The notes under the pieces are model-generated. The model made no database searches and was not told the DNA's origin. It saw only the letters and a list, made by a program, of their open reading frames with translations. 64,000 nucleotides of DNA from Escherichia coli. Lineage in GTDB: Bacteria; Pseudomonadota; Gammaproteobacteria; Enterobacterales; Enterobacteriaceae. Location: the NCBI RefSeq assembly GCF_045037415.1, contig NZ_CP173438.1; one strand, given 5' to 3'. Each line of letters starts with the position of its first letter. Position 1 is the first letter of the stretch. Positions 16,397 through 18,726 of this stretch are shown here, piece by piece. The position numbers were made by a program, and so were the translations under genes.

Positions 16397-16510
16397 ATCC
16401 ATACCTGCCAGAGGGTTCATAAATATCTCGCCAATATCATTTTGAATCTATGGAGAGAAAAGTACCCTTGTCGAATCTTTAAAGAAAGCGCATTTACGCA
16501 TCACTTTTTA

Positions 16511-16558
16511 TTTTTGCGAGGCGTTTTCCAGATACGATGTAACAGTTGCAGTTATTAC
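16511..16558. promoter_or_regulatory. Conserved cis-element copy 1 (tttttgcgaggcg..ccagatacgatgtaacagttgcagttatt) in divergent region between yiiF-like gene and cassette
   Basis: Near-identical to 18820-18868; left half also at 20484-20503; contains cagttgcagtt direct repeat. Confidence 0.5.
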
Positions 16559-16709
16559 GAAAACCAGTAAAAAATGGAAGTGAAAACAGTCGTGTGAAAA
16601 TTTCTACTCTTTCTGAATTTACTCTATAAAGTTGCCTTTCTCACATCCAATAGCTTAATGTCATCTACCAAGAAAAAACGATAAGTCGTCAGGGAACGGA
16701 ACAGATATA

Positions 16710-17558
16710 ATGAATAAAAACGAATCAATTTCTTACACCGAAATGCAAAAATTTTTTGCCAGAGAAATTAAGGAAGTAGGCGGTAGGCCCATCACTTCTA
16801 AGAATTTAGAGTTAAGTCTGCTACCCATTCACGCCAGGGAAAACCTTTCTGCGCCAGAAATGCCGTGGTATACCGAAGTTAATGATATCTATATGGAGTT
16901 CAGACGCTCACCATTCTGGATGGTTGCCGGTTATGTATTCCTGGGATTTATGCTTTCACTACTTTCCATCTCGATATTATCTATTGTTGCATTCTCATTT
17001 TATGAGATGGGCTTTAATAGTGACTTGTTATTTCTGTATCTACTTGCATTTGTGCTTGGCTGTTTTATATTACCTGGCGCTGCAAAAATTGCTTTTTTCA
17101 CGCCACATTATCTTCCTATAAGATTTAACAGAAAAACACAAAAAATTTATGTTTCAGATTTAATTATTGAAGGCAATATCTTCTTTGGAAAAATAAAACT
17201 CACTTTTCATGAATATGACTGGAAAGATGTTGAAGGTTGGGAGGTGAGTAGACATTTCAGTAAAAGTATGCCTTACAATGGATTACATCTGGTAGTTAAT
17301 AGAGAAAATGATATAAATGCACTGCGACAGACACGCGTTTATACAACCCGTGCACCGTGGAGTGCACAAGAAATGGCAAGACAAAAGAACTATATCCCCC
17401 AAATATGGCTTTATTGCCATAATTATATGGCTTATAAAACTGTGTCTGGTGCAAAGAACAAACCACAACCATTTATTTTTTTAAGAAACAATTGGCTATT
17501 TAAATGGCCAAAAGAAATGGATAAACGTTCCAGAAGCTCAAAGATACTGTCTGAATAA
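16710..17558 (+). CDS. Hypothetical membrane protein (two predicted TM helices, approx residues 69-96 and 104-127); AT-rich accessory gene
   Basis: 282-codon ORF; 16 G/C in first 60 nt; no motif I recognise. Confidence 0.7.
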   Translation: MNKNESISYTEMQKFFAREIKEVGGRPITSKNLELSLLPIHARENLSAPEMPWYTEVNDIYMEFRRSPFWMVAGYVFLGFMLSLLSISILSIVAFSFYEMGFNSDLLFLYLLAFVLGCFILPGAAKIAFFTPHYLPIRFNRKTQKIYVSDLIIEGNIFFGKIKLTFHEYDWKDVEGWEVSRHFSKSMPYNGLHLVVNRENDINALRQTRVYTTRAPWSAQEMARQKNYIPQIWLYCHNYMAYKTVSGAKNKPQPFIFLRNNWLFKWPKEMDKRSRSSKILSE

Positions 17559-17582
17559 GCATAATAATGAAGGATTTCGACT

Positions 17583-18323
17583 ATGATTAACAAACTTACT
17601 CTTCCTTGGCCGGTATTATTTTTAGAATTTTTTGTGCGAGAAGTTGCCTTTAAGGGTAAGGGAATTGTTCGTTCTACATTACCAGCAGATGCCCATTTTT
17701 ATACCGGTGGGTCAAAAGCCCTGCGTTATCACCTACAACCAGGAAACCAATGGCCAAACTATATATGGCATGATGATATAGGTGATATTGTACCGTTTCC
17801 TCTACCCTCACTTCCGCTTACATTTACCGCTAACCGACCCACATTTAATTCCAGAGAATTAGCGGATAAATGGATGAAGGATAATATTCATACCGCTGTC
17901 ATCATGGCGGGGGAATTTCTGTCTGCTAATGAATGGATTCGCCGCAAAAACCAGCTTAAAACTAGTGTACACCCTGCGTCAGTTGCTTCTTTCGCACCCT
18001 ATGGCTTTAACATTAACCAGTGTGATGACGATGGCAATCTTTGGACTAATTTCCCACGTCCCCACATCAAATTAAAAATCGCACCAGGAAAAACAGCTTG
18101 TTTTCTCTGCCGCCGGGAAGAGCTTTTATTTGGTTATGATGAAGCACATAATCACTACCAGCCGAATCTTAATCTGGTTTTATTTGTGAAAAATCATGGG
18201 TTGCATAAGGATGTTTACCTAAAATCTCATGACGATAAAAGTGAATACGATAGCAGAATATTATGTAACGAAAAATTTACCACTTATGATTTCCGTAAAA
18301 ACCGGTCCAGATACAGCTTTTGA
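17583..18323 (+). CDS. Hypothetical protein, 246 aa, co-oriented 24 bp downstream of the membrane protein (probable operon)
   Basis: aaggat RBS 8 nt upstream of ATG 17583; AT-rich like its neighbour; no recognised motif. Confidence 0.7.
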   Translation: MINKLTLPWPVLFLEFFVREVAFKGKGIVRSTLPADAHFYTGGSKALRYHLQPGNQWPNYIWHDDIGDIVPFPLPSLPLTFTANRPTFNSRELADKWMKDNIHTAVIMAGEFLSANEWIRRKNQLKTSVHPASVASFAPYGFNINQCDDDGNLWTNFPRPHIKLKIAPGKTACFLCRREELLFGYDEAHNHYQPNLNLVLFVKNHGLHKDVYLKSHDDKSEYDSRILCNEKFTTYDFRKNRSRYSF

Positions 18324-18424
18324 TAGTTTATTATCCTGGATGATATCAGGAGCGATATCTATAAAGTTTATGCATTCCCTGTGATCAATTTTTCCTGTTA
18401 GTGAGCACAAATTCAATCTGATTG

Positions 18425-18449
18425 ATGCCAGAATAAAGGCATCTGGCAT
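18425..18449 (+). terminator. Hairpin (atgccag...ctggcat) downstream of cassette, followed by T-rich run
   Basis: 7-bp inverted repeat with 11-nt loop between convergent stops. Confidence 0.45.
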
Positions 18450-18507
18450 GTTGATTTTATGTTCCAGAATGACAAAACATTGCTGTTAATAAGCACGACT
18501 CTTTTTG

Positions 18508-18726
18508 TCATTCCTCATGCCACTTACCCTGTTCTTCAACACCAACTACCTCACCCCTTTGCCTGTCACTTTTTGCCTTACGCACCGGAAATTGCTGACG
18601 CTCCAGATATTGCTCTACCGCTTCGCGTAAAATTGCAGAGCGCGAAACCTTACGCCAGCCCCGAAGCTTGTTCAGCCGTTTAATTGCCTCTTCTGATAAA
18701 TGAAGAAAAACCGTATTCATCGCCAT
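18508..18726 (-). CDS. yiiE: Ribbon-helix-helix small regulator, YiiE-like (72-aa model)
   Basis: VFLHLSEEAIKRLNKL...RSAILREAVEQYL RHH signature; aaggtgg RBS 5 nt before ATG 18726. Confidence 0.8.
   Translation of the reverse strand: MAMNTVFLHLSEEAIKRLNKLRGWRKVSRSAILREAVEQYLERQQFPVRKAKSDRQRGEVVGVEEQGKWHEE

Follow-up and report, generated by a model that had tools for sequence, protein, structure and literature searches.

In K-12-like genomes of Escherichia coli, yiiF and yiiE, which encode ribbon-helix-helix (RHH) proteins that are 40% identical to each other, are close neighbours, 217 bp apart. In the stretch of E. coli DNA analysed here (64,000 nucleotides of contig NZ_CP173438.1; hereafter the window), the same two genes are 2087 bp apart, and the interval holds two co-oriented open reading frames (ORFs), gene 1 (16710-17558, plus strand, 282 aa) and gene 2 (17583-18323, plus strand, 246 aa), separated by 24 nt. 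These features had all been recognized correctly in a preliminary description made from the sequence alone, which put the pair forward as a candidate for an undescribed two-gene system of phage defence, abortive infection or effector immunity. The question raised by the locus is whether the two genes form a system at all and what either of them may do. Here we report that the cassette is a composite of two independent modules rather than a two-gene system. Gene 1 almost certainly belongs to the DUF6708 family and is best read as an orphan, i.e., an immunity-type gene without its toxin.

Gene 1 and the DUF6708 family

The assignment of gene 1 to a family comes from profile, motif and structure comparisons. 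Gene 1 matched Pfam DUF6708 (PF20455) with an E-value of 2.6e-14 and a score of 53.9 bits, residues 124-247 aligning with positions 11-128 of the 200-position model, and RefSeq names its product 'DUF6708 domain-containing protein'. The earlier statement that neither protein carries an assignable motif therefore no longer holds for gene 1, and it stands for gene 2, which has no known family. When gene 1 was compared with DUF6708 arrays that are linked to effectors, hhalign gave a probability of 99.7% (E 7.6e-26) over columns 37-280 (220 columns), and our own hidden Markov models of the gene 1 clade and of the effector-linked DUF6708 proteins cross-detected both groups. The motifs NDxYxE, PxxxPxRxNRKxQKIY, DWxDVxG, IWSYCxxYM and KWPxEMD are common to the gene 1 clade and the effector-adjacent DUF6708 proteins, and a transmembrane hairpin is also common to the clade and distant members of the family. 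The clade itself is small, with close relatives at 35-62% identity. No match to gene 1 was found in NCBIfam, PADLOC or PHROGs, nor in a profile search of PDB sequences.

The AlphaFold2 model of gene 1 (mean predicted local distance difference test score 74) comprises a small N-terminal soluble part, two long helices, a six- or seven-stranded sheet and a long C-terminal helix. A Foldseek search with this model returned 113 matches with E ≤ 0.001; of the 50 matches listed, almost every one was a DUF6708 protein of T6SS-bearing Proteobacteria, and the fold matched DUF6708 members from Enterobacter, Citrobacter, Klebsiella, Yersinia, Pseudomonas, Acinetobacter and Stenotrophomonas. The two adjacent hydrophobic helices noted in the preliminary description span approximately residues 74-100 and 104-130, with a hydropathy (KD19) of up to 2.45, and the hairpin that they form is flanked on either side by basic residues, its loop being short and acidic. 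Hydropathy and the distribution of the flanking charges suggest a predicted inner-membrane protein of N-in/C-in topology.

Elsewhere, DUF6708 genes sit beside type VI secretion system (T6SS) toxins. In a megaplasmid T6SS cluster (locus L020), the order is TssH, VgrG, a 290-aa adaptor-like protein and a 1020-aa effector, followed by 8-9 tandem DUF6708 genes and then TssM-TssA. In Acinetobacter (L017), VgrG, a 239-aa protein, an 832-aa effector and DUF6708 follow one another. In an uncultured Cedecea (L016, 6207-11511), an effector split into ORFs of 429 and 555 aa, with no VgrG near it, precedes two DUF6708 genes and then a HigB-like toxin with a helix-turn-helix (HTH) antitoxin. The effectors of the three loci clear the curated cut-off of NCBIfam NF041559 ('T6SS effector BTH_I2691 family') by a wide margin, with one exception, the C-terminal half of the split Cedecea effector, whose match falls below it (83 vs 150 bits). 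Furthermore, metagenome contigs were scanned with a mixed DUF6708 alignment, and the flanks were searched with profiles from these three loci. A BTH_I2691-type effector was found directly upstream in 32 of the 42 distant DUF6708 loci, which are all 32 of the informative ones; the other 10 are uninformative, with < 250 bp of sequence before the first DUF6708 ORF. In the effector-linked loci, VgrG and an adaptor-like gene often lie farther upstream and 1-10 DUF6708 copies lie downstream, with up to ten DUF6708 ORFs in 12 kb. Some loci (among L047, L048, L052, L063, L068 and L072) carry two BTH_I2691 effectors, each with its own run of 3-6 DUF6708 genes.

These last are large poly-immunity arrays like one already described. 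In Stenotrophomonas rhizophila CFBP13503, behind the MIX/BTH_I2691 effector Tse3 come tsi3a, a DUF6708 gene, and 12 paralogues, for which a role in immunity to this effector has been proposed (PMC13340143, PMC10777753), so the family of gene 1 cannot be called undescribed. Gene 1 shares with the Tsi3a-type genes the Pfam family, homology over the full length, size and predicted fold; unlike them, it has no effector, VgrG or DUF4123-type adaptor upstream and is present in one copy, outside any array. The mode of action of a comparable pair is known from Pseudomonas putida, where Tke5, of the BTH_I2691 family, causes depolarisation of the inner membrane and is neutralised by a membrane protein, Tki5, which binds the membrane region of the toxin within the membrane; similar pairs are VasX/TsiV2, Ptx2/Pti2 and Bte2/Bti2 (PMC13133200). 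Tki5, TsiV2 (V. cholerae), Pti2 (P. aeruginosa) and Bti2 (B. fragilis) are inner-membrane proteins encoded directly after a BTH_I2691-family toxin, a genomic position in which the DUF6708 family also occurs. Their likeness to gene 1, compared by description, lies in the presumed mode of action and implies no family tie.

Such toxins are missing from the surroundings of gene 1. Housekeeping genes alone (fdo, yih, gln, polA, an rrn operon and others) make up the part of the window near the gene pair, and no T6SS gene, effector, VgrG or adaptor was found in this neighbourhood. Moreover, the placed members of the gene 1 clade have no effector within 7-10 kb, and VgrG is likewise missing near the close relatives: these stand solo in E. 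albertii (at the fdhE-yiiD locus), in Buttiauxella (between housekeeping genes) and in an integrase-bearing island. Because no effector or T6SS gene is nearby, we read gene 1 as an orphan. A nucleotide search of complete E. coli genomes with the Cedecea effector also returned nothing, which is weak evidence at the DNA level only. The proposal of an effector-immunity cassette thus stands in part: gene 1 is from a family of inter-bacterial conflict, but there is no effector here, and gene 2 occurs alone elsewhere.

Orphan immunity genes are familiar from other bacteria, for example as arrays in Vibrio cholerae. In Bacteroidales, they are mentioned as acquired interbacterial defence (AID) clusters (PMC12469244). 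Like these clusters, the gene 1 locus is an immunity-type gene kept without its toxin at a variable chromosomal site of a gut bacterium. Unlike the AID clusters, which are recombinase-associated arrays, it has no array, recombinase or integrase; it consists of one gene of a known immunity type and one unknown gene, bracketed by duplicated RHH genes.

We consider a protective function of gene 1 against BTH_I2691/VasX-type T6SS toxins rather probable. Effectors of this family are pore-forming toxins and depolarise the inner membrane. By analogy with Tke5 and Tki5, the hairpin of gene 1 and the domains adjacent to it may attach, inside the inner membrane, to that region of an incoming toxin which inserts into the membrane, and this binding would block the formation of the toxin channel. 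In this way, gene 1 would shield its E. coli lineage when other Proteobacteria equipped with such toxins attack it by T6SS.

Several points weigh against this interpretation. We infer the immunity role of DUF6708 from gene position, and no experimental neutralisation of a toxin by any DUF6708 protein was found in the literature searched. Gene 1 is only 21-29% identical to the effector-linked members, and the members sampled from its own clade (35-62% identity) are orphans without exception. An immunity protein is usually specific for its toxin; no cognate toxin can be named for gene 1, and its function may have altered. Expression of the locus is likewise presumed, as the sites returned by a promoter and terminator scan were not above the shuffled-sequence background. 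In addition, the high identity among the copies of the pair in E. coli (at least 99%) is uninformative on selection, and a few of these copies are interrupted by IS1 or truncated.

Gene 2 and the separability of the pair

A profile search of the fetched loci placed members of the DUF6708 and gene 2 families side by side in the E. coli cassette and nowhere else. No DUF6708 neighbour was found at ~15 other gene 2 loci, which include those of Budviciaceae, Providencia and Bacteroidota, an E. coli locus beside rpoS, and the Escherichia-like contig L039; conversely, the 42 distant DUF6708 loci contain no relative of gene 2 by profile search. The strongest case is L039, where a gene 2 homologue (88% identical) lies alone between yiiF and yiiE without the gene 1 module. 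Since relatives of gene 1 occur solo and relatives of gene 2 occur without a DUF6708 neighbour, the two genes are separable, and the idea of a two-gene system does not hold in the other lineages.

Gene 2 is predicted to be a soluble, mostly beta protein, with a confident beta-rich fold. No match was found in Pfam, NCBIfam, PADLOC, PHROGs or PDB sequences, and the predicted fold matched no solved structure. The family is represented by 29 clusters in a search of 5.8 billion proteins, by 33 representatives among 1.84 billion clusters, all of them single-domain proteins of ~230-250 aa or fragments, and by 12 loci in 100,044 species genomes, from Enterobacterales and Bacteroidota. Its conserved blocks are LFLEFFVRE, FLCRREE, PNLNLVLFVKNHG and DFRKSRxKYxLG, and 31 columns are invariant, including R19, E111, R177, E179, N197, K203, N204, D236, R238 and K239.

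The genomic contexts of the family differ between lineages. In Budviciaceae, gene 2 follows suhB in a syntenic position in Leminorella richardii, L. grimontii, Limnobaculum allomyrinae and the genome CWB-B4; between genera it is 49% identical, compared to 89-93% for the neighbouring SuhB and IscR. A relative in Providencia lies between an aminotransferase gene and uvrA. In other E. coli, a paralogue (36% identical) stands alone in the variable mutS-rpoS region, with a MarR-family regulator gene on one side and rpoS on the other, and is annotated 'hypothetical protein' (L021 5505-6254, from E. coli O169:H41 NZ_CP062824.1, and L019 8992-9753). The 4.9-Mb L019 record (NZ_CP134663.1) is labelled 'plasmid unnamed1' and is an E. 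coli chromosome, so hits there are not plasmid evidence; the matches in the plasmid collection were this mislabelled chromosome and the megaplasmid T6SS cluster. L. grimontii has two gene 2 paralogues, the second of which (L032 9507-12005) lies among co-oriented ORFs of 152, 252, 192, 103 and 78 aa. Several of the small ORFs there have hydrophobic N-termini, and the 192-aa one weakly matches the NCBIfam models PRK14710 and PRK09781, both named 'hypothetical protein'.

In Bacteroidota, the gene 2 homologues of Chitinophagales and Saprospiraceae adjoin DUF4279-like genes at four loci (L024, L034, L035 and L036), with three tandem DUF4279-like paralogues at L034, and a Chitinophaga homologue (L006) adjoins a DUF1963 protein. 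DUF4279 is the FdL-Imm5 immunity family (PMC9424270, PMC13304343). Profile comparison revealed no relationship of gene 2 to gene 1 or to its DUF4279-like neighbours.

Our best guess for gene 2, at clearly less than even odds, is an immunity-like role, which would make it a second orphan immunity-like protein. Speaking for this role are its place directly behind an immunity-type gene here, its DUF4279-like and DUF1963 neighbours in Bacteroidota, and its fast divergence; elsewhere it stands alone among housekeeping genes. We read genes 1 and 2 as two independent accessory modules, adjacent by chance and probably co-transcribed, and gene 2 as a cytoplasmic, mostly beta member of a tiny and fast-evolving family that inserts as a single gene at variable intergenic sites. 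Its occurrence alone speaks against gene 2 being a toxin. A stronger version, in which gene 2 founds an undescribed family of conflict proteins, providing immunity against a cytoplasm-acting toxin or serving as a single-gene defence factor, is doubtful; in this version, gene 2 may act in Escherichia together with changeable membrane partners encoded upstream, the DUF6708 protein here and a 178-aa two-helix membrane protein plus a 167-175-aa protein at two other loci (L015 and L038). No toxin-like gene adjoins gene 2 in any of ~17 loci, which counts against an immunity-like role, as do the invariant polar residues, which one meets more often in an enzyme or a specific binder than in an immunity protein that diversifies quickly.

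The explanation that survives best beside the immunity-like one gives gene 2 a cellular role outside conflict, for example as an enzyme or a stress protein, merely placed beside an orphan immunity gene; we give it a real but minor chance. The synteny after suhB in four Budviciaceae genomes, which also fits an unrelated cellular role, the 31 invariant columns, and the solo relative beside rpoS in other E. coli all favour it. Against this, gene 2 is extremely sparse and patchy for a cellular protein, diverges faster than its neighbours, is AT-rich and of foreign composition, and in Bacteroidota is embedded in arrays of immunity-type paralogues.

Distribution and age of the cassette

The gene pair is accessory, as the preliminary description had supposed: of 5426 complete E. 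coli genomes, 564 carry the segment, each in single copy. Identity among these copies is at least 99%, with the flanks counted in, and the carriers therefore represent one haplotype group. Many carrier genomes are from human isolates, including MNCRE44, which we take to be ST131. A 2.7-kb contig (UQCR01000230.1, L027) of a Firmicutes metagenome-assembled genome labelled 'uncultured Robinsoniella sp.' is also 100% identical to the cassette at the protein level; it is almost certainly a binning contaminant.

The base composition of the pair had likewise been judged correctly as AT-rich against its flanks. Across the pair, GC content is 35-43%, compared to 50-58% in the fdo/fdhE and fabY/dtd flanks. 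Gene 1 has 35.8% GC (third-position GC, GC3, 0.318), with 16 G/C in its first 60 nt, and gene 2 has 40.1% GC (GC3 0.336), while the neighbouring core genes have 52-55% GC and a GC3 of 0.58-0.68. Both ORFs have protein-level homologues in other genera and are therefore not chance ORFs. The spacer between them (17559-17582, plus strand, 24 nt) holds an AAGGA ribosome-binding site, this Shine-Dalgarno sequence lying 8 nt 5' of the gene 2 ATG, and a terminator scan found no terminator-like site between the two genes. The short spacer and the ribosome-binding site suggest that genes 1 and 2 are co-transcribed. A kinship of this spacer with the 24-nt spacers of the L020 immunity array was considered and rejected, as the two have only AAGGATT in common, at a different offset, as expected of an ordinary ribosome-binding site.

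Comparison of haplotypes at the locus shows repeated exchange. In K-12-like genomes, both variable segments, the gene pair and a second one at 19100-21600, are missing; blastn against the annotated K-12-like locus L002 defined a missing segment of 1944 bp (16558-18501), with 73 bp in its place. The EC93 haplotype reads yiiF-yiiE-toxin/antitoxin-hydrolase. In a derivative of E2348/69 (E. coli O127:H6, L026, locus 3785-4832), yiiE is the sole RHH gene and yiiF is absent. From contig L039, only module A, the unit of gene 1 (16558-17594, plus strand, 1037 bp), is missing, with 124 bp of unrelated sequence instead. In E. albertii (L009/L010 7392-8846; L046 9337-10646), a remnant of yiiF is joined to an internal fragment of gene 2, equivalent to window positions 17725-17871 (87-90% nucleotide identity), and a DUF6708 paralogue (69% nucleotide identity) comes next, with an internal deletion in L046. 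This arrangement points to an ancestral array in which DUF6708 was present in two or more copies. At the fdhE-yiiD locus of an Enterobacteriaceae contig (L015 5141-7043) and of Escherichia sp. MOD1-EC7003 (L038 8849-11233), a different co-oriented trio is present: a membrane protein of 178 aa that bears a hydrophobic helix at either terminus, a protein of 167-175 aa, and a gene 2 homologue. Pfam, NCBIfam and PHROGs gave no match for the former two. In L038, gene 2 is degraded, its first ~40 residues being left, fused into a 421-aa ORF.

Because a remnant is found in E. albertii and gene 2 homologues are found at the same locus in other Escherichia and Enterobacteriaceae, the cassette is probably an old polymorphism that has been lost from most E. 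coli, rather than a recent insertion; the preliminary description had called the cassette inserted. The K-12 arrangement is then most simply a derived loss. We regard the locus as an old hot spot that exchanges small modules, with gene 2 as the more persistent resident there.

This history lends itself to a second alternative, in which both genes are relics, leftovers of an ancestral variable islet that was perhaps once linked to a T6SS effector, probably silent here and decaying elsewhere. The single haplotype group with copies at least 99% identical points to retention by descent; most E. coli have lost the pair, and E. albertii keeps only a fragment of gene 2 with its diverged DUF6708 paralogue; insertions of IS1 and truncated forms exist; and no consensus promoter rises above background. 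We nevertheless consider this unlikely: neither ORF is interrupted in AT-rich DNA, in which stop codons readily appear, the ribosome-binding site of gene 2 is a good one, and the orphan relatives of gene 1 (47-62% identity) and the relatives of gene 2 are full length in several genera, which indicates purifying selection at the level of the families.

A two-gene anti-phage (abortive-infection) system, in which a membrane protein works with a soluble partner, possibly under the control of YiiF, fares markedly worse, and we hold it to be very improbable. In size, AT-richness, patchiness and proximity to a toxin-antitoxin module, the pair does resemble the small phage-defence and abortive-infection cassettes covered by PADLOC, the 24-nt spacing suggests an operon, and absence from PADLOC would be compatible with an undescribed system. 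Unlike the PADLOC cassettes, however, the pair matches no model, has no link to phages and is not an obligate pair, its two genes occurring separately everywhere else. The defence annotation of the locus gave zero PADLOC-DB v2 families at E ≤ 1 for gene 1, gene 2, YiiF and YiiE, and no relatives of either protein were found in 50,697 phage genomes, IMG/VR, PHROGs or PADLOC. Moreover, the family of gene 1 is tied to T6SS effectors in every informative locus, the solo homologues sit among housekeeping genes and not in defence islands, and the neighbouring toxin-antitoxin/hydrolase segment varies independently of the pair, being present in at least 1235 genomes compared to 564. The proposed function in phage defence is thus not borne out.

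Least probable of all, and barely credible, is a self-contained toxin-immunity pair with gene 2 as a small toxin (e.g., Hcp-borne T6SS cargo) and the DUF6708 protein as its immunity: the genes are adjacent, co-oriented and tightly spaced and DUF6708 is an immunity-type family, but the gene order is opposite to the usual effector-then-immunity order, the gene 2 homologues are solo among housekeeping genes and lack any candidate immunity gene, gene 2 itself has neither a trafficking domain nor a known toxin fold, and wherever DUF6708 genes are effector-linked, the gene in front of them encodes a BTH_I2691 toxin and in no case a relative of gene 2.

RHH repeats and neighbouring genes

The cassette is bracketed by repeated units. 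yiiF (16178-16420, minus strand) is an RHH (CopG-type) gene by annotation and by a match to Pfam RHH_1, and it is divergent from gene 1; its paralogue yiiE (18508-18726, minus strand) has 72 aa in RefSeq, and its longest ORF reaches 18753. Alignment revealed an element of ~140 bp (TTTTTGCGAG...ATGTAACAGTTGCAGTTATT) 5' of both RHH genes. Copy 1, upstream of yiiF, spans 16421-16557 and carries TTTTTGCGAG and ATGTAACAGTTGCAGTTATT; copy 2, upstream of yiiE, spans 18727-18865 in direct-repeat orientation relative to copy 1, and positions 16474-16556 cross-match 18782-18865. The preliminary description had noticed that the cassette shares the upstream element of an RHH regulator. The element is indeed there, but it is also found in genomes without the gene pair, and is therefore part of the RHH duplication rather than of the cassette. 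ATGTAACAGTTGCAGTTATT contains a TAAC...GTTA inverted pair and a CAGTT direct repeat, and the element that bears it looks like an operator for YiiF/YiiE.

The repeated units of RHH gene and element are in direct orientation, and the distal end of the element (16557/16558) is the left breakpoint of two different indels, as seen by blastn against L002 and L039. Recombination between the direct repeats would provide a simple route for loss, and the single-RHH form of E2348/69 fits a deletion between the two repeated units. A toxin-antitoxin pair of YiiF and gene 2 was also considered and rejected, as the two genes are divergent and not operonic and yiiF is kept without gene 2 in most E. coli.

The toxin-antitoxin module that had been noted beside the pair is a probable one (19760-20362, minus strand). 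Its 103-aa protein, which RefSeq names 'hypothetical protein', resembles RelE only weakly (PF06296, E 0.006) and also matches phrog_5869, and its antitoxin is NadS/HTH_3/MqsA-like. The module belongs to the segment 19100-21600, which encodes this probable RelE-like toxin, the NadS antitoxin and an alpha/beta hydrolase. The Cedecea locus L016 juxtaposes DUF6708 and a toxin-antitoxin module, as the window does. Between yiiE and the module lie two small, basic ORFs, 19123-19401 (minus strand, 92 aa) and 19463-19675 (minus strand, 70 aa, Cys-rich), without a family match; both are kept in L039/L040, and the 92-aa ORF is also found in L038. Farther away, the annotation of NZ_AP040232.1, a RefSeq genome that is 100% identical to window 16100-18800, makes yihF (2907018-2908448, ~47.7-49.2 kb of the window by coordinate conversion) a pseudogene that contains an internal stop; the stop was seen in the annotation of that genome only.

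Taken together, the locus is an example of a hot spot for the gain and loss of small modules that is bracketed by duplicated RHH genes with their upstream elements. Gene 2 adds a compact, well-folded and unannotated family, in which nothing found marks the gene as special. For DUF6708, a position directly behind a BTH_I2691 effector in all 32 informative loci provides a much firmer contextual annotation. If gene 1 has the proposed function, one large, clinically sampled lineage of E. coli would carry a standing defence against T6SS attack by other Proteobacteria, and this protection would bear on gut colonisation and competition.

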